DNA of 64,000 nt from assembly GCF_024700885.2 (NCBI RefSeq), contig NZ_CP117016.1. One strand, given 5' to 3'. Numbering within the stretch: position 1 is the first letter of the stretch; every line of letters begins with the position of its first letter. The DNA is from Escherichia coli. Lineage in GTDB: Bacteria > Pseudomonadota > Gammaproteobacteria > Enterobacterales > Enterobacteriaceae. Under the pieces are notes generated by a model. That model had not been told where the DNA came from. It made no database searches and saw only the letters and a list, made by a program, of their open reading frames with translations. Below, piece by piece: positions 11,049 to 46,702 of this stretch. Position numbers and translations under genes: made by a program.

Positions 11049-11162
11049 GGGGGCTCTGTTGGTTCTCCCGCAACGCTACTCTGTTTACCAGGTCAGGTCC
11101 GGAAGGAAGCAGCCAAGGCAGATGACGCGTGTGCCGGGATGTAGCTGGCAGGGCCCCCACCC
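11049..11162 (+). ncRNA. ffs: 4.5S RNA (SRP RNA) ffs
   Basis: GGGGGCTCTGTTGGTTCTCCCGCAACGCTACTCTGTTTACCAGGTCAGGTCCGGAAGGAAGCAGCCAAGGCAGATGACGCGTGTGCCGGGATGTAGCTGGCAGGGCCCCCACC matches the recalled E. coli 4.5S RNA, including the conserved SRP domain IV GGAAGGAAGCAGCC motif. Confidence 0.93.
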
Positions 11163-13967: not shown

Positions 13968-14519
13968 TTACAATTTTTTAATTATTCTGGCTGGATTACC
14001 GCCCACGACAACGTTGTCCGGGACATCTTTTGTGACAACTGCACCTGAGGCTACCACGACGTTATCACCAATGGTCACACCAGGGTTAATGACCGCGCGT
14101 CCGCCAATCCAGACGTTATTACCGATGGTGACGGGTTTCCCCAGTTCAGCACCGCTATTACGTGCTACAGGGTCGATGGGATGTGTTGCCGTGTAGATAT
14201 GAACGCCTGGTGCCAACATACAGTTATCACCGATGCGAATAGGGCAGACATCAAGCATCACGCAATCGAAGTTGGCGAAAAAATTATTGCCGAGAAAAAT
14301 GTTATAGCCATAATCACAGCGAAACGTTGGCTCAATATAAGCCTCTGTCACCTGACCGAATAAATCAGCGAGAATTTGCTGGCGTAATGTGTGCTCTTCC
14401 GCCAGGGAATGATTGTATCGGTGAATAAGCTGACGAGCGCGCAGGCGATCGCGAGATAACGTCTCATCTGCCGAGCGATACAACTCACCAGCAATCATCT
14501 TTTCTTTTTCTGTGCTCAT
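13968..14519 (-). CDS. maa: Maltose O-acetyltransferase (hexapeptide-repeat acyltransferase)
   Basis: 183-aa ORF with left-handed beta-helix hexapeptide repeats ([16 protein letters not shown]). Confidence 0.93.
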
Positions 14520-26692: not shown

Positions 26693-28624
26693 ATGAGTTA
26701 TCAGGTCTTAGCCCGAAAATGGCGCCCACAAACCTTTGCTGACGTCGTCGGCCAGGAACATGTGCTGACCGCACTGGCGAACGGCTTGTCGTTAGGGCGT
26801 ATTCATCATGCTTATCTTTTTTCCGGCACCCGTGGCGTCGGAAAAACCTCTATCGCCCGACTGCTGGCGAAGGGGCTAAACTGCGAAACCGGCATTACCG
26901 CGACGCCGTGCGGCGTGTGCGATAACTGTCGTGAAATCGAGCAGGGGCGCTTTGTCGATCTGATTGAAATCGACGCCGCCTCGCGCACCAAAGTTGAAGA
27001 CACTCGCGACCTGCTGGATAACGTCCAGTACGCTCCGGCGCGTGGTCGTTTCAAAGTTTATCTGATCGACGAAGTGCATATGCTGTCGCGCCACAGCTTT
27101 AACGCACTGTTAAAAACCCTTGAAGAGCCGCCGGAGCACGTTAAGTTTCTGCTGGCGACGACCGATCCGCAGAAATTGCCGGTGACGATTTTGTCGCGCT
27201 GTCTGCAATTCCATCTCAAGGCGCTGGATGTCGAGCAAATTCGCCATCAGCTTGAACACATCCTCAACGAAGAACATATCGCTCACGAGCCGCGGGCGCT
27301 GCAATTGCTGGCGCGCGCCGCTGAAGGCAGCCTGCGAGATGCCTTAAGTCTGACCGACCAGGCGATTGCCAGCGGTGACGGCCAGGTTTCAACTCAGGCG
27401 GTCAGTGCGATGCTGGGTACGCTTGACGACGATCAGGCGCTGTCGCTGGTTGAAGCGATGGTCGAGGCCAACGGCGAGCGCGTAATGGCGCTGATTAATG
27501 AAGCCGCTGCCCGTGGTATCGAGTGGGAAGCGTTGCTGGTGGAAATGCTCGGTCTGTTGCATCGTATTGCGATGGTACAACTTTCGCCTGCTGCACTTGG
27601 CAACGACATGGCCGCCATCGAGCTGCGGATGCGTGAACTGGCGCGCACCATACCGCCGACGGATATTCAGCTTTACTATCAGACGCTGTTGATTGGTCGC
27701 AAAGAATTACCGTATGCGCCAGACCGCCGTATGGGCGTTGAGATGACGCTGCTTCGTGCGCTGGCGTTCCATCCGCGTATGCCGCTGCCTGAGCCAGAAG
27801 TGCCACGCCAGTCCTTTGCGCCCGTCGCGCCAACGGCAGTAATGACGCCAACCCAGGTGCCGCCGCAACCGCAATCAGCGCCGCAGCAGGCACCGACTGT
27901 ACCGCTCCCGGAAACCACCAGCCAGGTGCTGGCGGCGCGCCAGCAGTTGCAGCGCGTGCAGGGAGCAACCAAAGCAAAAAAGAGTGAACCGGCAGCCGCT
28001 ACCCGCGCGCGGCCGGTGAATAACGCTGCGCTGGAAAGACTGGCTTCGGTCACCGATCGCGTTCAGGCGCGTCCGGTGCCATCGGCGCTGGAAAAAGCGC
28101 CAGCCAAAAAAGAAGCGTATCGCTGGAAGGCCACCACTCCAGTGATGCAGCAAAAAGAAGTGGTCGCCACGCCGAAGGCGCTAAAAAAAGCGCTGGAACA
28201 TGAAAAAACGCCGGAACTGGCGGCGAAGCTGGCGGCAGAAGCCATTGAGCGCGACCCGTGGGCGGCACAGGTGAGCCAACTTTCGCTACCAAAACTGGTC
28301 GAACAGGTGGCCTTAAATGCCTGGAAAGAGGAGAGCGACAACGCAGTATGTCTGCATTTGCGCTCCTCTCAGCGGCATTTGAACAACCGCGGCGCACAGC
28401 AAAAACTGGCTGAAGCGTTGAGCACGTTAAAAGGTTCAACGGTTGAACTGACTATCGTTGAAGATGATAATCCCGCGGTGCGTACGCCGCTGGAATGGCG
28501 TCAGGCGATATACGAAGAAAAACTTGCGCAGGCGCGCGAGTCCATTATTGCGGATAATAATATTCAGACCCTGCGTCGATTCTTCGATGCGGAGCTGGAT
28601 GAAGAAAGTATCCGCCCCATTTGA
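26693..28624 (+). CDS. dnaX: DNA polymerase III tau subunit (full length); the gamma subunit is made from the same start by -1 frameshifting
   Basis: 643-aa ORF; Walker A GTRGVGKTS, Zn-binding CGVCDNC. Confidence 0.96.
   Translation: MSYQVLARKWRPQTFADVVGQEHVLTALANGLSLGRIHHAYLFSGTRGVGKTSIARLLAKGLNCETGITATPCGVCDNCREIEQGRFVDLIEIDAASRTKVEDTRDLLDNVQYAPARGRFKVYLIDEVHMLSRHSFNALLKTLEEPPEHVKFLLATTDPQKLPVTILSRCLQFHLKALDVEQIRHQLEHILNEEHIAHEPRALQLLARAAEGSLRDALSLTDQAIASGDGQVSTQAVSAMLGTLDDDQALSLVEAMVEANGERVMALINEAAARGIEWEALLVEMLGLLHRIAMVQLSPAALGNDMAAIELRMRELARTIPPTDIQLYYQTLLIGRKELPYAPDRRMGVEMTLLRALAFHPRMPLPEPEVPRQSFAPVAPTAVMTPTQVPPQPQSAPQQAPTVPLPETTSQVLAARQQLQRVQGATKAKKSEPAAATRARPVNNAALERLASVTDRVQARPVPSALEKAPAKKEAYRWKATTPVMQQKEVVATPKALKKALEHEKTPELAAKLAAEAIERDPWAAQVSQLSLPKLVEQVALNAWKEESDNAVCLHLRSSQRHLNNRGAQQKLAEALSTLKGSTVELTIVEDDNPAVRTPLEWRQAIYEEKLAQARESIIADNNIQTLRRFFDAELDEESIRPI
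27976..28016 (+). other. dnaX: dnaX programmed -1 ribosomal frameshift site (slippery heptamer plus downstream stem-loop) yielding gamma
   Basis: A AAA AAG at 27976..27982 in the dnaX frame (codons GCA AAA AAG); the -1 frame reads GAG TGA (Glu, stop) directly after; GC-rich stem-loop CCGGCAGCCGC...GCGCGGCCGG at 27989..28016. Confidence 0.9.
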
Positions 28625-35940: not shown

Positions 35941-36046
35941 GTAGGCCAGATAAGGCGTTCACGCCGTATCTGGCATTTTGCTCTCAATGCCTGATGCGAC
36001 GCTGGCGCGTCTTATCATGCCTACATATCCGCGCCTATTATCCGGC
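35941..36046. repeat. REP/BIME cluster between gsk and ybaL
   Basis: GTAGGCCAGATAAGGCGTTCACGCCGTATCTGGC and GCCTGATGCGACGCTGGCGCGTCTTATCATGCCTAC are REP-type palindromes. Confidence 0.8.
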
Positions 36047-39407: not shown

Positions 39408-41060
39408 ATGAAATTATTGCAGCGGGGCGTGGCGTTAGCACTGTTAACCACATTTACACTGGCGAGTGAAACTGCTCTGGCGTATGAGCAGGATAAAACC
39501 TACAAAATTACAGTTCTGCACACCAATGATCATCATGGGCATTTTTGGCGCAATGAATATGGCGAATATGGTCTGGCGGCGCAAAAAACGCTGGTGGATG
39601 GTATCCGCAAAGAGGTTGCGGCTGAAGGCGGTAGCGTGCTGCTACTTTCCGGTGGCGACATTAACACTGGCGTGCCCGAGTCTGACTTACAGGATGCCGA
39701 ACCTGATTTTCGCGGCATGAATCTGGTGGGTTACGATGCGATGGCAATCGGTAATCATGAATTTGATAACCCGCTCACCGTATTACGCCAGCAGGAAAAG
39801 TGGGCAAAGTTCCCGTTACTTTCTGCCAATATCTACCAGAAAAGTACCGGCGAGCGCCTGTTTAAACCATGGGCGCTGTTTAAGCGTCAGGATCTGAAAA
39901 TTGCCGTTATTGGCCTGACGACGGATGACACAGCGAAGTTAGGCAACCCAGAAAACTTCACCGATATTGAGTTCCGTAAGCCCGCCGATGAAGCGAAGCT
40001 GGTGATTCAGGAGCTGCAACAGACAGAAAAGCCAGACATTATTATCGCGGCGACCCATATGGGGCATTACGACAATGGTGAGCACGGCTCTAACGCACCG
40101 GGCGATGTGGAGATGGCACGCGCGCTGCCTGCCGGATCGCTGGCGATGATCGTCGGTGGTCACTCGCAAGATCCGGTCTGCATGGCGGCAGAAAACAAAA
40201 AACAGGTCGATTACGTGCCGGGTACGCCATGTAAACCGGATCAACAAAACGGCATCTGGATTGTGCAGGCGCATGAGTGGGGCAAATACGTGGGACGGGC
40301 TGATTTTGAGTTTCGTAATGGCGAAATGAAAATGGTTAACTACCAGCTGATTCCGGTGAACCTGAAGAAGAAAGTGACCTGGGAAGACGGGAAAAGCGAG
40401 CGCGTGCTTTACACTCCTGAAATCGCTGAAAACCAGCAAATGATCTCGCTGTTATCGCCGTTCCAGAACAAAGGCAAAGCGCAGCTGGAAGTGAAAATAG
40501 GCGAAACCAATGGTCGTCTGGAAGGCGATCGTGACAAAGTGCGTTTTGTACAGACCAATATGGGGCGGTTGATTCTGGCAGCCCAAATGGATCGCACTGG
40601 TGCTGACTTTGCGGTGATGAGTGGAGGCGGAATTCGTGATTCTATCGAAGCAGGCGATATCAGCTATAAAAACGTGCTGAAAGTGCAGCCATTCGGCAAT
40701 GTGGTGGTGTATGCCGACATGACCGGTAAAGAGGTGATTGATTACCTGACCGCCGTCGCACAAATGAAGCCAGATTCAGGTGCCTACCCGCAATTTGCCA
40801 ACGTTAGCTTTGTGGCGAAAGATGGCAAACTGAACGACCTGAAAATCAACGGCGAACCGGTCGATCCGGCGAAAACTTACCGCATGGCGACATTAAACTT
40901 CAATGCCACCGGCGGTGATGGCTATCCGCGCCTTGATAACAAACCGGGCTATGTGAATACCGGCTTTATTGATGCCGAAGTGCTGAAAGCGTATATCCAG
41001 AAGAGCTCGCCGCTGGATGTGAGTGTTTATGAACCGAAAGGTGAGGTGAGCTGGCAGTAA
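39408..41060 (+). CDS. ushA: Periplasmic UDP-sugar hydrolase / 5'-nucleotidase UshA
   Basis: 550-aa ORF with signal peptide; metallophosphatase motifs (DHHGH, GNHEFD). Confidence 0.96.
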   Translation: MKLLQRGVALALLTTFTLASETALAYEQDKTYKITVLHTNDHHGHFWRNEYGEYGLAAQKTLVDGIRKEVAAEGGSVLLLSGGDINTGVPESDLQDAEPDFRGMNLVGYDAMAIGNHEFDNPLTVLRQQEKWAKFPLLSANIYQKSTGERLFKPWALFKRQDLKIAVIGLTTDDTAKLGNPENFTDIEFRKPADEAKLVIQELQQTEKPDIIIAATHMGHYDNGEHGSNAPGDVEMARALPAGSLAMIVGGHSQDPVCMAAENKKQVDYVPGTPCKPDQQNGIWIVQAHEWGKYVGRADFEFRNGEMKMVNYQLIPVNLKKKVTWEDGKSERVLYTPEIAENQQMISLLSPFQNKGKAQLEVKIGETNGRLEGDRDKVRFVQTNMGRLILAAQMDRTGADFAVMSGGGIRDSIEAGDISYKNVLKVQPFGNVVVYADMTGKEVIDYLTAVAQMKPDSGAYPQFANVSFVAKDGKLNDLKINGEPVDPAKTYRMATLNFNATGGDGYPRLDNKPGYVNTGFIDAEVLKAYIQKSSPLDVSVYEPKGEVSWQ

Positions 41061-41096: not shown

Positions 41097-41591
<495 letters not shown>

Positions 41592-41697: not shown

Positions 41698-41781
41698 ACA
41701 CCGTCGCTTAAAGTGACGGCATAATAATAAAAATATGAAATTCCTCTTTGACGGGCCAATAGCGATATTGGCCATTTTTTT
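41698..41781 (+). ncRNA. chiX: Small regulatory RNA ChiX (MicM/SroB)
   Basis: ACACCGTCGCTTAAAGTGACGGCATAATAATAAAAATATGAAATTCCTCTTTGACGGGCCAATAGCGATATTGGCCATTTTTTT matches the recalled ChiX sequence; ends in an intrinsic terminator (GGCCAATAGCGATATTGGCC plus T7) that abuts the convergent ybaP stop. Confidence 0.88.
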
Positions 41782-42574
41782 AACGCAACATCTGCGGCAA
41801 ATTCCCTTCTCCATACAGGTGTAGTGCACCGACTGCGACCACATAGCGCCCCGGCGGCATGGCGCATAATTTGTCCCGCCAGGCGAGATTTCGCTGATGC
41901 ATCAGCACATCGTACAGCGACTGACTGAACGTATTAGGCAGCGTTATTTCATTATTTTGCGGCGGCGCATTCAGCCACCAGCTCATCATTTGTTGCAGCA
42001 ACCGTGCATTGGTGTGCCAGTGGGTCAGCGTATCGTCCAGCAGCGCCAGTCCGTTGTCAGGGAGCTGGAGCAACATGGCAATCTGGTTTTCTGCCCCTTC
42101 CAGTTCAATCACGGGTTTATGTTGTTGCTTCGCCGCCTGCAATAGCTGGTAATCGATACCGTATTCTGCCCGCAGCCCCAGTTTTTGTGCCTGCGTCGCC
42201 TGAAGAACCATCGCGATTTGCCACAGCGGTTGGGTAGAAAAGAGCGACGGAGAAATGCCCATCTCCTGGCTAATGTGCTGCAGATTTTGGAGTTGCTCCT
42301 CGCTAATGCGCTCTTCCAGCGCCTCGCAGGCAGGCAAATTAGCAAAAGGCGTATCGCTGGTGGAAACATCCGCCTCGACGATCAGCGCATCGGCGTTTTT
42401 GAGCTTTTTGAGCAAACGGGTGGGCAGGGGAGCCATATCGTGGCTGCCCATATGAATACTGCCAATCAGATGAAAATGGCGATTGCCGGGAAGAGAGATA
42501 TCGATAGCAGGCCAGGTGTAATGATTACCGCGCAGCGCGGCCCAAAGCGTTTTTACCCGGTACAACAGATCCAT
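41780..42574 (-). CDS. ybaP: TraB-family protein YbaP
   Basis: 264-aa ORF. Confidence 0.9.
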   Translation of the reverse strand: MDLLYRVKTLWAALRGNHYTWPAIDISLPGNRHFHLIGSIHMGSHDMAPLPTRLLKKLKNADALIVEADVSTSDTPFANLPACEALEERISEEQLQNLQHISQEMGISPSLFSTQPLWQIAMVLQATQAQKLGLRAEYGIDYQLLQAAKQQHKPVIELEGAENQIAMLLQLPDNGLALLDDTLTHWHTNARLLQQMMSWWLNAPPQNNEITLPNTFSQSLYDVLMHQRNLAWRDKLCAMPPGRYVVAVGALHLYGEGNLPQMLR

Positions 42575-43002
42575 ACGACCTCCCTTTGTGAAATATCATG
42601 CTAGCGCGCGGGGAGGGATGGCGCAAATGGAGTTATGAGGCTTGTTCAGTGGTAGCTTAAATATGATCAAAAAATTGTTTTTGCTTTGAAACGAAAGACT
42701 GCACCGGTGTTGGTGGCGTCAAAATCGCCGAGGCGTTCCCTGAAGGCCGGGGCAGCCCACATGGATGTGGGCTGAGGGCGCGTTTTACAGGGATGTTACC
42801 TCGCGCCCGACCCGGTAGCCGCAAGGGATAAGCTGAGGGTACCGCGCAGCGGCGATTTTGTTCGCCAGAGCCCGGGGGCGCAGGGGGCGGCGGCGATTGG
42901 CCGCCCCCTGCGCGCTCCCTGCGCCAGTCACTTTATATGGCATTACTCATAAAAGGAGCGCAACAAGAACTGGATCTCACAAACGCATTAAGTAAATACC
43001 AA

Positions 43003-45507
43003 TCATTCCTTCGGTTTAAACCGCAGCAACCGGTTGGCGTTACTCACTACGGTAATCGACGAGAGCGCCATTGCCGCTCCGGCGACCACCGGGTTAAGCA
43101 GCGTACCGGTGAACGGCCACAAAATACCGGCGGCGACCGGAATACCGATACTGTTGTAGATAAACGCGCCGAGCAGGTTCTGCTTCATATTGCGCAGCGT
43201 TGCGCGGGAAATCGCGAGCGCATCCGCAACACCCATCAGGCTATGGCGCATCAGGGTAATCGCCGCGGTTTCAATGGCAACATCACTGCCGCCACCCATC
43301 GCAATACCGACATCCGCCTGAGCCAGCGCTGGCGCGTCGTTAATGCCGTCGCCCACCATTGCCACCTGACGTCCTTCACTTTGCAGACGTTTGATCGCTT
43401 CGGCTTTACCGTCCGGCAGCACCCCAGCTATCACCTCATCAATCCCTGCTTCTTTGGCGATCGCATTGGCGGTGGTTGGGTTATCCCCGGTTAGCATCAC
43501 CAGACGATATCCCGCTTTATGCAGGCGTTGCAGCGCCGCCACGCTATCACTACGCAATGGATCGCGTACAGCCAGCAGGGCTACCGCTTTCCCGTCAACC
43601 GCCAGCAGCACAGGCGTTGCCCCTTGCGATGCCTGAGCTGAAATATCTGCCTCAATCGCTTTAGTATCAACTTGCTGGTCATTTAACAGCGCCTGATTGC
43701 CCAGCAATACCGCATGACCTTCAGCTTCACCGCTCACACCCAGCCCGCGCAATGTGCGGAAACCGTTGACCTGCGGTAGCTGCATATCACCTGCTTTATC
43801 GAGGATCGCCCGTGCCAGCGGGTGGCTGGAACCTTGCTCCAGCGCCGCCGCCAGACGCAATGCTTGCGCTTCATCAACATCAGCAAATGTTTTTACTGCG
43901 ACAACCTGCGGCTTCCCTTCGGTCAGCGTCCCGGTTTTATCGAACACCACGGTGTCGAGCGTACTGGCGCGTTGCAGCGCGTCGGCGTCCCGCACCAGCA
44001 CACCAAACTCAGCCGCCCGCCCGACGCCCGAAATAATCGACATCGGCGTCGCCAGTCCCAGCGCACACGGACAGGCGATAATCAGCACCGTGGTGGCAAT
44101 CACCAGGGTATAGACAATCTGCGGTGCCGGACCAAAGAAATACCAGATTGCCGCACTGATCAGCGCAATGACTACCACTACCGGCACAAACACGGCGGAG
44201 ATTTTATCCGCCAGTTGACCGATTTCTGGCTTGCTGCTCTGGGCCTGTCGCACCATGCGAATGATCCGTGACAGCGTAGTATGGCTGCCGACCGCACTGG
44301 CACGAAACAGCACACTGCCGTCCTGTACCACTGTCCCGGCATGGACGCTATCGCCTTCGCCTTTTTGCTGCGGGATAGGTTCGCCCGTCAGCATCGCTTC
44401 ATCCAGCCACGCTTCGCCTTGAGTAATCTCACCATCTACCGGCACACGGTCGCCGGTCGTCAGGCGCAGTAACATACCTGGCTGAACATCTGCCAGCGGC
44501 ACGTTTTTTTCACCTTCGTCAGTGACCAGGCGCGCCGTCGGTGGGGTTAAATCGAGTAATTTCTCCAGCGCCTTAGAAGAACGCTGACGCGCGCGCGCTT
44601 CCAGCATATGGCCGAGATTGATCAGACCGATAATCATCGCGCTGGCTTCGTAATAAAGATGTCGCGCTTCCATCGGGAACCACTGCGGCCACAGGTTGAC
44701 GCTCATCGAATAGAGCCACGCCACGCCCGTACCCAGCGCCACCAGCGTATCCATTGTCGCCGCGCCGTTCAGCAGGCTTTTCCATGCACTGCGGTAAAAA
44801 TGCCCGCCGGCGAAAACCATTACCGCCAGGGTTATCAGGCCGATAACCAACCACAGGCTGCGGTTGTCGGCGGTGACCATCATGTTATCGCCGATCATCC
44901 CCCAGACCATCACCGGGATACCCACCGCCAGTGCGACAATCGCCTGCCAGCGGAAGCGCTTCATCGTAGCGACGGCGGTTTCTTGCTGGCGCTCGCGGCG
45001 TTTAGCGTCATCTTCAATCGCTTCCGCGCCGTAGCCCGCTTTTTCCACCGCCTGCACTAAATCTTGTGGGGAGGCACTGCCCATCACCAGCGCAGTACGC
45101 TCCGCCAGGTTTACCCGTGCCTGAGTGACGCCCGGTACGCTTTGCAACGCATTTTGTACGCGGGTGACACAGCTGGCGCAGCTCATGCCGCTCAGCAGCA
45201 ACTGCTGGCTGTCATCGTCATCGGCGGTCGCTGCCGGAAGCGCCTCAGAAACCGCTGTCAGTGCTTCCGACGGGATTGATGACTCCGCCAGCGGTTTAGC
45301 CTTTGGGTGGCTTACAGATGCGTCATAACCCGCTTGTTTGATGGTTTCGATCAGCTGTTCTGCACTGGCAGTCCCGGTAACGTGCGCTTCAGTGACAGAC
45401 ACATCCGCCTGCTCAACATCCGGGCGCTGTTCGAGACTTTCTTTCACGCGTTTAACGCAGTGACCGCAGGACAGGCCGTCCAGGGTCAGGTCGATAGTTT
45501 GTGACAT
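43003..45507 (-). CDS. copA: Cu(I)-translocating P1B-type ATPase CopA
   Basis: 834-aa ORF; two N-terminal GxxCxxC metal-binding domains, CPC motif, DKTGTLT phosphorylation site. Confidence 0.97.
45301..45307 (-). other. copA: copA programmed -1 frameshift slippery site giving the ~70-aa CopA(Z) chaperone
   Basis: Minus-strand heptamer C CCA AAG spans codons 67-69 (His-Pro-Lys); the -1 frame reads CCC AAA GGC TAA, terminating after Gly70. Confidence 0.75.
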
Positions 45508-45769: not shown

Positions 45770-46702
45770 ATGTTAGATGCAAACAAATTACAGCAGGCAG
45801 TGGATCAGGCTTACACCCAATTTCACTCACTTAACGGCGGACAAAATGCCGACTACATTCCCTTTCTGGCGAATGTACCTGGTCAACTGGCAGCAGTGGC
45901 TATTGTGACCTGCGATGGCAACATCTATCGCGCGGGTGATAGTGATTACCGCTTTGCGCTGGAATCCATCTCGAAAGTCTGTACGTTAGCCCTTGCGTTA
46001 GAAGATGTCGGCCCGCAGGCGGTACAGGACAAAGTTGGCGCTGACCCGACCGGATTGCCCTTTAACTCAGTTATCGCCTTAGAGTTGCATGGCGGCAAAC
46101 CGCTGTCGCCACTGGTAAATGCTGGCGCTATTGCCACCACCAGCCTGATTAACGCTGAAAATGCCGAACAACGCTGGCAGCGAATTTTACATATCCAACA
46201 ACAACTGGCTGGTGAGCAGGTAGCGCTCTCTGACGAAGTCAACCAGTCGGAACAAACAACCAACTTCCATAACCGGGCCATTGCCTGGCTGCTGTACTCC
46301 GCCGGATATCTCTATTGTGATGCAATGGAAGCCTGTGACGTGTACACCCGTCAGTGCTCCACGCTCATCAATACTGTTGAACTGGCAACGCTTGGCGCGA
46401 CGCTGGCGGCGGGTGGTGTGAATCCGCTGACGCATAAACGCGTTCTTCAGGCCGACAACGTGCCGTACATTCTGGCTGAAATGATGATGGAAGGGCTGTA
46501 TGGTCGCTCCGGTGACTGGGCGTATCGCGTTGGTTTACCGGGCAAAAGCGGTGTAGGTGGCGGTATTCTGGCGGTCGTCCCTGGCGTGATGGGAATTGCC
46601 GCGTTCTCACCACCGCTGGACGAAGAAGGCAACAGTGTTCGCGGTCAAAAAATGGTGGCATCGGTCGCTAAGCAACTCGGCTATAACGTGTTTAAGGGCT
46701 GA
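45770..46702 (+). CDS. glsA: Glutaminase 1 (GlsA/YbaS)
   Basis: 310-aa ORF, serine-dependent glutaminase family. Confidence 0.94.
   Translation: MLDANKLQQAVDQAYTQFHSLNGGQNADYIPFLANVPGQLAAVAIVTCDGNIYRAGDSDYRFALESISKVCTLALALEDVGPQAVQDKVGADPTGLPFNSVIALELHGGKPLSPLVNAGAIATTSLINAENAEQRWQRILHIQQQLAGEQVALSDEVNQSEQTTNFHNRAIAWLLYSAGYLYCDAMEACDVYTRQCSTLINTVELATLGATLAAGGVNPLTHKRVLQADNVPYILAEMMMEGLYGRSGDWAYRVGLPGKSGVGGGILAVVPGVMGIAAFSPPLDEEGNSVRGQKMVASVAKQLGYNVFKG

Follow-up and report, generated by a model that had tools for sequence, protein, structure and literature searches.

TRIP1e, an interspersed repeat between ybaP and copA in Escherichia coli, has a conserved three-domain structure whose first domain is probably related to TwoAYGGAY RNAs

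Introduction

The TRIP1 repeats of Escherichia coli, described by Rudd in 1999, were recently divided into five types (Li et al. 2024, Genes 15:236, PMC10888264). One of these, TRIP1e, was placed between ybaP, whose start is 124 bp away, and copA, whose stop is 38 bp away (published sequence CP057178.1 1232542-1232806), and was found in 3% of the genomes surveyed. The same study reports a G+C content of 62-65% for the family, variable presence or absence of copies at fixed loci and chromosomal inversions mediated by TRIP1 copies. It gives only single-sequence RNAfold pictures and rearrangement counts, and it calls the role of the repeat unclear. Here, we analysed the spacer between ybaP and copA in a 64,000-nucleotide stretch of the E. 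coli chromosome (NCBI contig NZ_CP117016.1; below called the window, with positions counted from its first letter), which contains a hairpin-dense segment that is almost certainly TRIP1e.

The TwoAYGGAY RNA (RF01731) is a function-orphan RNA with covariation support, whose Psychromonas seed sequences are multicopy and followed by a further hairpin (Weinberg et al. 2010). These RNAs were suggested to bind CsrA (Gardner and Eldai 2015, PMC4333381). In the literature that we searched, no paper tied TRIP1 to TwoAYGGAY or CsrA, and TRIP1 terms otherwise occurred only in unrelated yeast work. Li et al. (2024) do not describe homologues outside E. coli, covariation, a TwoAYGGAY or CsrA link, or the displaced ybaQ gene. 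The TRIP1e element and its location are already published; the structural findings on TRIP1 presented here, namely covariation across genera, the link to TwoAYGGAY and loops that fit the CsrA-binding motif, are new compared with the literature available. The function of both orphans, TRIP1 since 1999 and TwoAYGGAY since 2010, becomes testable in E. coli K-12.

Identification of TRIP1e

The gap between ybaP and copA is composed of a repeat and its flanks.

42575..43002: ybaP-copA gap, 428 bp
42575..42646: intergenic flank beside ybaP, also present in alleles that carry ybaQ; the replaced segment has its left edge here
42647..42693: 5' flank of the repeat, specific to this allele, with weak likeness to the 5' flanks of other TRIP1 copies
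42694..42970, + strand: TRIP1e repeat, whole element, placed by sequence identity and published position
42971..42993: allele-specific 3' flank, in place of the K-12 hairpin downstream of copA (by alignment)
42994..43002: right edge of the replaced segment, nine bases next to the copA stop codon, common to all alleles

Positions 42698-42968 match 2-8 places (median 4) with 90-95% identity in virtually every E. coli genome, which answers the question raised in the first-pass annotation whether the same element occurs elsewhere. TRIP1 loci were verified at lysO-aqpZ, yohP-dusC, putP-efeU (partial copy) and alx-sstT. The window copy shows 93.7% identity to TRIP1a of K-12 over 271 nt, and 90.4% identity to TRIP1c and TRIP1d. 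Similarity to TRIP1 starts at 42698 (ybaP start at 42574) and the published end maps to approximately 42964-42965 (copA stop at 43003); the boundaries of Li et al. correspond to approximately 42699-42964. We regard the identity of the segment, which the first-pass annotation did not recognize, as almost certain: it is TRIP1e, a chromosomal copy of the E. coli TRIP1 interspersed repeat. The element agrees with the published TRIP1e in all respects, and the G+C content of its first domain (0.64 over 157 nt) compares with the range reported for the family. The allele is uncommon in both surveys: at a coverage of at least 80%, it was present in 346-347 of 5,426 complete E. coli genomes (~6%, ~1 in 16). 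What had been sighted, and correctly so, is a published strain polymorphism in which TRIP1e stands where most strains carry the ybaQ antitoxin gene.

Replacement of ybaQ

The K-12 intergenic region is different from that of the window and contains ybaQ and repetitive extragenic palindromic (REP) units. As had been claimed from the sequence, ybaQ is missing between ybaP and copA, and neither the gene nor a remnant of it was detected by tblastn and blastn. The description of a gap of about 430 bp without larger open reading frames (ORFs) was also correct, as the longest ORFs encode 55, 52 and 45 amino acids, apart from a copA-antisense ORF of 185 amino acids. Tblastn with K-12 YbaQ found nothing across the whole window, and the neighbouring RelE/ParE toxin gave only noise there. 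With the intergenic DNA of K-12 and of the toxin-antitoxin allele as queries, the blastn match was limited to the first 60-72 bp beside ybaP (94% identity to K-12 over 72 bp, 100% to the toxin-antitoxin allele over 60 bp). Since the DNA match is confined to this part and the protein search was empty, there is no frameshifted ybaQ remnant; a remnant and a ybaQ gene elsewhere in the window were both rejected.

Among the 5,426 complete E. coli genomes, ybaQ is a single-copy gene that is present in 4,834 and absent from 592. The ybaP-copA spacer falls into at least four allele classes, namely ybaQ with the toxin gene, ybaQ alone (orphan), the scar of a ybaQ deletion, and TRIP1e. The first three are represented by the following loci.

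L004: RelE/ParE toxin gene and ybaQ
L003 (K-12) and L006 (O26): orphan ybaQ, then differing numbers of REP units
L005: true deletion scar, a 171-bp gap retaining the ybaQ upstream region and the last 22 nt

All alleles agree in the first 60-72 bp next to ybaP and in the last 9 bp next to the copA stop, and everything between varies. Because the interior is wholly different between alleles, the TRIP1e allele also lacks the K-12 hairpin downstream of copA, which was judged to be the copA terminator by eye only, as no scan was run on it. The orphan ybaQ of K-12 appears to have arisen from the toxin-antitoxin allele by loss of the toxin gene. The spans of the genome matches for this locus increase in steps of ~101 bp (1785, 1886, 1987 and 2088 bp), consistent with the differing REP content of L003 and L006.

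A deletion scar had been considered as the origin of the segment, and the absence of ybaQ from the window together with the genuine scar allele known in other strains (L005) would fit this explanation. However, no likeness to ybaQ or the toxin was observed in the gap or elsewhere in the window at the protein or DNA level, the segment is 90-94% identical to repeats at other loci, and ybaQ is single-copy and lacking in the 592 genomes mentioned above. The probability that a scar, or a degraded or relocated ybaQ, explains the segment is practically negligible. For the TRIP1e allele the scar reading is wrong, although a real scar allele exists in other strains; this allele, which lacks the HigA-type antitoxin gene, is a replacement and not a scar. 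The result is relevant to annotation because the missing ybaQ and the hairpins are neither an assembly error nor a scar.

A three-domain structure conserved between genera

TRIP1 forms a ~275-nt three-domain structure that is kept by compensatory changes. This conservation spans Escherichia, Klebsiella, Enterobacter, Leclercia, Silvania, Kluyvera and Citrobacter, with Pantoea as more distant relatives. In the window copy, the structural elements and the underlying inverted repeats are located as follows.

42712..42868, + strand: domain 1, a TwoAYGGAY-like multi-branch fold (P1, interrupted P2, two GGA-loop hairpins, P5)
42720..42727, + strand: P1 5' strand CAAAAUCG, pairing with 42853-42860; 4 of 8 pairs compensatory
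42853..42860, + strand: P1 3' strand CGAUUUUG
within domain 1: P2, a long interrupted helix whose 3' strand contains the conserved AAGGGAUAAG
42753..42774, + strand: hairpin 1, CAGCCCACA-UGGA-UGUGGGCUG, GGA at 42763-42765
42776..42808, + strand: hairpin 2, GGGCGCG...UACAGGGAUGU...CGCGCCC, GGA at 42791-42793
42842..42852, + strand: P5, small hairpin CCGC-GCA-GCGG; 99% paired, 2 of 4 pairs covary
42878..42913, + strand: P6, perfect 14-bp G+C hairpin with loop GGCGAUUG
42913..42960, + strand: P7, CGCUCC (42913-42918) paired with GGAGCG (42955-42960), variable loop inside
42753-42762 / 42765-42774: inverted repeat, 10 nt, 100% complementary
42878-42891 / 42900-42913: inverted repeat I2, 14 nt, 100% complementary
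42720-42735 / 42845-42860: long-range inverted repeat I1, 16 nt, 88% complementary, arms 109 nt apart

In alignment A1 (36 non-redundant Enterobacteriaceae copies, which are paralogues and orthologues of one family, so that cells are not independent events, and from which the tested consensus structure was itself derived), 97.1% of cells form standard pairs, compared with 87.5% for shuffled partners and ~40% for partners slid by 1-3 columns. Compensatory change was observed in 21 of the 39 pairs, compared with ~10 after shuffling and 6-9 after sliding, and none of 500 shuffles matched the observed value on any of five measures. Alignment A2, with 24 copies and a hand-set structure, gave the same outcome with one exception, as the observed number of further pair types was attained by 2 of 500 shuffles. 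The stem of hairpin 1 is 100% paired in the 36 sequences, with covariation in four of six pairs, and the P6 stem shows wide covariation from genus to genus (GCAGGGGGCGGC, GCCAGGGUGGU and UGUUAAGGGGGC are examples).

The first-pass annotation had described two strong palindromes and a longer imperfect inverted repeat around a core of about 110 bp, and had offered a structured RNA as one explanation. The palindromes exist, as hairpin 1 and P6, but their real positions are ~8 nt further to the right than had been given; the long-range repeat is confirmed as I1. Folding of the 277-nt core on the + strand gave a minimum free energy of -145.5 kcal/mol, compared with -116.2 ± 5.2 kcal/mol for shuffled sequences (z = -5.6), and the - strand gave z = -5.0, so that the predicted stability is far beyond that of shuffles on both strands. 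Regarding the structured RNA, the conservation of the structure is borne out by covariation, but RNA as the folded molecule remains a candidate.

In P7, Escherichia and Klebsiella have GCGCUCC/GGAGCGC where Enterobacter, Leclercia and Silvania have CGUUCAC/GUGAACG, a fully compensatory swap. Owing to this swap, the sequence 'AAGGAG' is to be read as a helix strand and not as a ribosome-binding site. This bears on a small-protein leader, in which AAAGGAGCGCAACAAGATG, found in some copies, would be a ribosome-binding site with a start codon and the structure would regulate a short ORF. K-12 TRIP1a and TRIP1c do carry an ATG 8 nt after AAGGAG. However, the window copy has no ATG at that place, the downstream 'ORFs' vary in length and sequence among copies, and AAGGAGCGC is the 3' strand of P7, with GUGAACG and a matching change of the partner strand in other genera. 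Such a leader is very improbable, and a Shine-Dalgarno sequence with ATG at the 3' end of the element was rejected, given AAGGAG in the covarying P7 and no ATG in the window copy.

Relationship to TwoAYGGAY RNAs

The sole Rfam family resembling the gap is RF01731 TwoAYGGAY, with 31.5 bits at 42719-42858 (+ strand; E = 0.009 in a local search; gathering score 43). The covariance-model search that had been proposed for this interval hence yields a likeness below threshold and no family at its gathering score. The other full-length TRIP1 types (TRIP1a, c and d) score 28.4-33.1 bits with this model. As 28-33 bits lie below the gathering score, TRIP1 is not a member of RF01731 by Rfam's rule. Apparent hits to MIR1437, mir-B6, Pxr and flavivirus xrRNA in the gap merely reflect the G+C hairpin and were rejected.

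A covariance model built on Enterobacteriaceae copies only (R1) has exactly one match in the window, at domain 1 with 176 bits, and there is thus no second copy in the 64 kb. The same model recognizes a Pantoea copy (L098; 35.5 bits, E = 3.5e-5) and a copy in a gammaproteobacterial metagenome-assembled genome (MAG; L175; 42 bits, E = 1.6e-6). Both score above threshold with RF01731, at 48.3 bits (L098, 9051-9177) and 51.8 bits. Other Pantoea copies reach 64-77 bits with R1 and Marinomonas ~32 bits. A Clostridiales MAG copy (L161) has 103.8 bits with RF01731 and 16.7 bits with R1, and the related copy L162, unscored against Rfam, has 20.8 bits with R1. Because sequences that are significant to both R1 and RF01731 bridge the two families, domain 1 is grouped structurally with TwoAYGGAY. 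It is well supported that domain 1 of TRIP1 is a divergent, G+C-rich branch of the TwoAYGGAY structure with extra domains.

The likeness comprises a closing P1 around two adjacent hairpins, with loop GGA in a CAUGGAUG-like context, and the P1 stem is present and covarying in TRIP1. TRIP1 is multicopy within genomes, as are the Psychromonas seeds, and some sequences match both models. Loop 1 of the window copy (AUGGAU) corresponds to AYGGAY. The second loop differs, as it reads AGGGAU, with G replacing Y, or AAGGAC in TRIP1. Additionally, TRIP1 is G+C-rich and carries extra conserved parts (interrupted P2, P5, P6 and P7).

GGA loops and possible binding of CsrA

The taxa with the motif, Clostridia and gammaproteobacteria, possess CsrA. 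The optimal CsrA/RsmE site reads A/U-CANGGANG-U/A with GGA in the loop, and the consensus from systematic evolution of ligands by exponential enrichment (SELEX) is RUACARGGAUGU. The loop regions of hairpin 1 (ACAUGGAUGU, 42759-42768) and hairpin 2 (ACAGGGAUGU, 42787-42796) both fit WCANGGANGW, and both read A-CA-N-GGA-N-G-U within covarying hairpins. Their GGA sites are 28 nt apart, a spacing that can be bridged by one CsrA dimer. Single WCANGGANGW sites are not rare in the window (7 versus 5.3 expected), and the weight therefore rests on pairing, arrangement and conservation. In copies found by BLAST, GGA is constant, and the base before it can be G, A, C, U or missing. Of 23 model-found copies that were not selected by the scan pattern, which include the divergent 'type B' copies described below, nearly all retain GGA as well. 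In the context of the loop GGA and in the dimer-bridgeable spacing of two sites, TRIP1 resembles CsrB, CsrC, RsmX/Y/Z and McaS. CsrB, CsrC and RsmX/Y/Z have many sites in a single gene, whereas TRIP1 has two loop sites, is dispersed and multicopy, and no promoter or terminator was found. CsrA sponge RNAs have far more than two GGA loop sites.

Our best single guess, made tentatively from sequence, is that TRIP1 is a structured RNA module with predicted CsrA binding. Transcription of the + strand would allow TRIP1 to act as such a module, one CsrA dimer would bind both GGA-loop hairpins, and binding would lead either to titration of CsrA or to CsrA control of the host transcript. A wider proposal is doubtful: TRIP1 might be the Enterobacteriaceae branch of TwoAYGGAY, with both families being dispersed multicopy putative CsrA-binding RNA modules of which each copy clamps one CsrA dimer. 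If this were true, the set of TRIP1 copies (3-5 in E. coli, ~13 in Klebsiella) would be a strain-variable, distributed addition to the Csr network, and presence/absence alleles such as TRIP1e would alter how CsrA is buffered or how far adjacent genes depend on it.

Several observations weigh against CsrA binding by a TRIP1 RNA. GGA is found in loops only twice per TRIP1, as the other conserved GGAs lie within helices; the third conserved GGA (AAGGGAUAAG) and 'AAGGAG' are helix strands. G.U and A.C pairs occur in a ratio of only 18:10, which is too weak to assign the strand. A scan of 42500-43100 for promoters and intrinsic terminators returned zero sites, and no sigma-70-like promoter was detected. 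On the + strand of the window, ybaP is divergent upstream of TRIP1e and copA is convergent downstream, so that the likeliest transcript over TRIP1e is copA read-through, which carries the antisense sequence. In the rows listed of a gene-based table of E. coli CsrA crosslinking and immunoprecipitation sequencing (CLIP-seq), dusC and ybjE are marked 'No' and TRIP1 coordinates are not given, which is weak negative evidence. The YohP paper, checked for evidence of expression or binding, contained nothing usable. By eye, the 5' flanks of other TRIP1 copies showed no convincing -35/-10 elements, and of a UvrY/GacA-type upstream box only a CTTACA half-site was seen in some genera, so that such a box is unsupported. 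Since the + strand of TRIP1e lacks a co-directional upstream gene and a recognizable promoter, this copy may be silent.

TRIP1 as a possible mobile DNA repeat

Almost as likely as a CsrA-binding module, and likewise no more than possible, is a structure-dependent selfish DNA repeat. TRIP1 would then be a selfish or recombining non-autonomous repeat, similar to bacterial interspersed mosaic elements (BIMEs) or miniature inverted-repeat transposable elements (MITEs), whose hairpins and loops are needed at the DNA level without a host function. The folded single-stranded or cruciform DNA would be recognized by a transposase, recombinase or nuclease, and TRIP1e would be a neutral copy that arrived by insertion or allelic replacement.

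A number of points count at the same time for such a repeat and against the CsrA-binding module. A selfish repeat would account just as well for the occurrence of multiple copies at variable sites. At the aqpZ-lysO spacer, TRIP1a has opposite orientations in K-12 and O157:H7 (L001 2844-3337 versus L008 2451-2907). In Klebsiella, the copies form mosaics with REP-like units, and some stand in tandem. In a survey of 93 copies with crude ORF calls, 64 contexts could be fully classified, of which 33 (52%) are convergent, 26 tandem and 5 divergent; convergent neighbours are thus over-represented and divergent ones scarce. In the tandem contexts, the element is oriented 13:13 and hence does not follow the sense strand of the adjacent genes, as is usual for REP-like or selfish repeats. 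Further support for a selfish repeat comes from the copy numbers (2-8 per E. coli genome, ~13 in Klebsiella), the variable presence at fixed loci, the head-to-head pairs in several genera, the comparably good folding on both strands, the empty promoter scan and the chromosomal inversions mediated by TRIP1 copies.

On the other hand, the ends of the element lack terminal inverted repeats: inverted repeats are internal only, and the terminal sequences AAAGACTGCAC... and ...GGAGCGCAAC are not complementary. The comparison of filled and empty sites at ybaP-copA, aqpZ-lysO and alx-sstT revealed neither a clean empty site nor a target duplication, as the whole spacer differs in each case, a result that also weighs against the CsrA-binding module. 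No associated transposase was identified, and the copy number is low. Moreover, it would have to be ascribed to chance that both loops fit the CsrA RNA motif exactly, and the Rfam TwoAYGGAY family is regarded as an RNA with covariation support. Of the miniature inverted-repeat element that the first-pass annotation had considered, the repetition elsewhere in the genome stands, whereas a strict MITE is not supported.

TRIP1 shares several properties with REP/BIME and with enterobacterial repetitive intergenic consensus (ERIC) sequences or intergenic repeat units (IRUs). It is extragenic, G+C-rich and palindromic, is enriched near gene 3' ends, avoids divergent promoter regions and is mosaic with REP in Klebsiella, and in other strains its spacers contain repeats of other types. 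It differs from them in its much greater length, branched fold, conserved loop motifs and low copy number (2-8 per genome). The gap contained no match to the REP-derived naRNA4 model (REP/BIME units are ~35-40 bp long); K-12 has true REP units at the locus.

TRIP1 as a possible element of mRNA 3' ends

A REP-like 3'-end element, whose hairpins would act on whichever strand is transcribed by read-through, is unlikely. The hairpins would block 3' exonucleases or would constitute a pause site or insulator between converging genes, and, with the K-12 hairpin downstream of copA gone, the - strand of TRIP1e would supply the copA mRNA with its 3' end. Consistent with this, the TRIP1e allele lacks that hairpin (a terminator by eye, unscanned) and the element starts 9-38 bp after the copA stop. 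In E. coli, aqpZ, dusC or copA has its 3' end next to that of the element. The 52% of convergent contexts, the strong stability on both strands and the REP arrays or another repeat in the same spacers of other strains also point in this direction. However, the conserved GGA loops and the multi-helix architecture across genera would be left unexplained, since any stable hairpin would do, and no hairpin is followed by a U-run. As an alternative to silence, the main importance of TRIP1e may be that it gives the convergent copA mRNA a new, structured 3' end. Because the K-12 hairpin is lacking, the 3' end and the stability of this copper-exporter mRNA may change. The selfish repeat, the REP-like 3'-end element and the CsrA-binding module are not mutually exclusive.

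Relatives in other genera and at other loci

The genome scan for relatives used a tight two-loop pattern and one genome per species, and the genera found are at least those listed. Among the matches listed are Escherichia species, Enterobacter, Klebsiella, Raoultella, Leclercia, Silvania, Pseudescherichia, Pseudocitrobacter, Kluyvera, Citrobacter and Pantoea, and as more distant relatives Marinomonas, Shewanella, Thalassotalea, gammaproteobacterial MAGs and a Clostridiales MAG. By BLAST, Klebsiella carries ~13 copies per genome with 82-87% identity. Copies of Pseudocitrobacter and Kluyvera can be aligned from 42680 onward. A loose two-loop pattern, applied to viral contigs, gave 55 matches, mostly coding repeats or palindromic DNA sites, with 2-4 TwoAYGGAY-like matches (L013, L062 and L026); it was rejected as too noisy, and the tighter pattern was therefore used for the genome scan. 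Double-hairpin elements resembling TwoAYGGAY/TRIP1 lie on the viral (IMG/VR) contigs L062 (11675-11798, - strand; 29.4 bits with the TRIP1 model) and L013 (~14217-14265). BLAST against a curated phage collection gave no match.

In many genera, a strong copy stands head-to-head with a 'type B' copy that is divergent in sequence but shares the structure (36-82 bits). The 5' ends of such pairs are often exactly 57 nt apart. Pairs are found at the following loci.

L181: 3851-4007 (-) and 4065-4220 (+)
L087: 1964-2121 (-) and 2179-2335 (+)
L164: 5416-5573 (-) and 5631-5787 (+)
further pairs: L143, L148, L136, L146, L182, L113, L106-L111, L081-L083 and, in Pantoea, L098-L104

Conceivably, such a pair represents a divergent transcription unit or else a composite element. 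The partners do not form long terminal inverted repeats, as no sequence-level inverted repeat was found between them. TRIP1e of E. coli has no head-to-head partner.

In L130, L081, L185, L122 and L113, an insertion of ~100 nt is located in the P2 3' strand, within the 3' half of domain 1. It brings in a third hairpin, GGCCCAGGGATGGGCC, with another CANGGANG loop. The Klebsiella copies (L068 1440-2220; L069-L071 ~1440-1500) are each directly preceded by a REP-like sequence (GCCGGGTGGCGGCTGCGCCTTACCCGGCCTAC...), and L068 has two tandem copies 437 nt apart.

The O157 allele of the aqpZ-lysO spacer lacks the K-12 aqpZ terminator hairpin, and TRIP1a there follows aqpZ immediately, in sense orientation. 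At alx-sstT (L192 1547-1944 versus L012 554-1168), K-12 has another repeat of the CCCTCTCCC...GGGAGAGGG / GGGTGAGGG type where some strains have TRIP1d. A repeat of the same type is located directly 3' of TRIP1-like elements in Enterobacter, Silvania and Leclercia (L119, L135, L137, L165 and L183). An 85-bp match to 42880-42964, which covers only the P6-P7 part, was observed with 88% identity on the 243-kb E. coli plasmid H70 (NZ_CP194962.1, 204484-204568).

Gene neighbourhood and other elements of the window

The genes around the gap are listed below; their annotation was confirmed on strain 1190, which is 100% identical.

39408-41060, + strand: ushA
41097-41576, - strand: ybaK
41780-42574, - strand: ybaP
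43003-45507, - strand: copA
45770-46702, + strand: glsA

Elsewhere in the window, four matches scored above the Rfam gathering score: the small RNA sroB at 41698-41781 (+), between ybaK and ybaP, the dnaX frameshift element at 27957-28021 (+), a REP-derived naRNA4 match at 35944-36021 (+), outside the gap, and the signal recognition particle (SRP) RNA at 11057-11153 (+). All of these are expected in such a chromosomal region.

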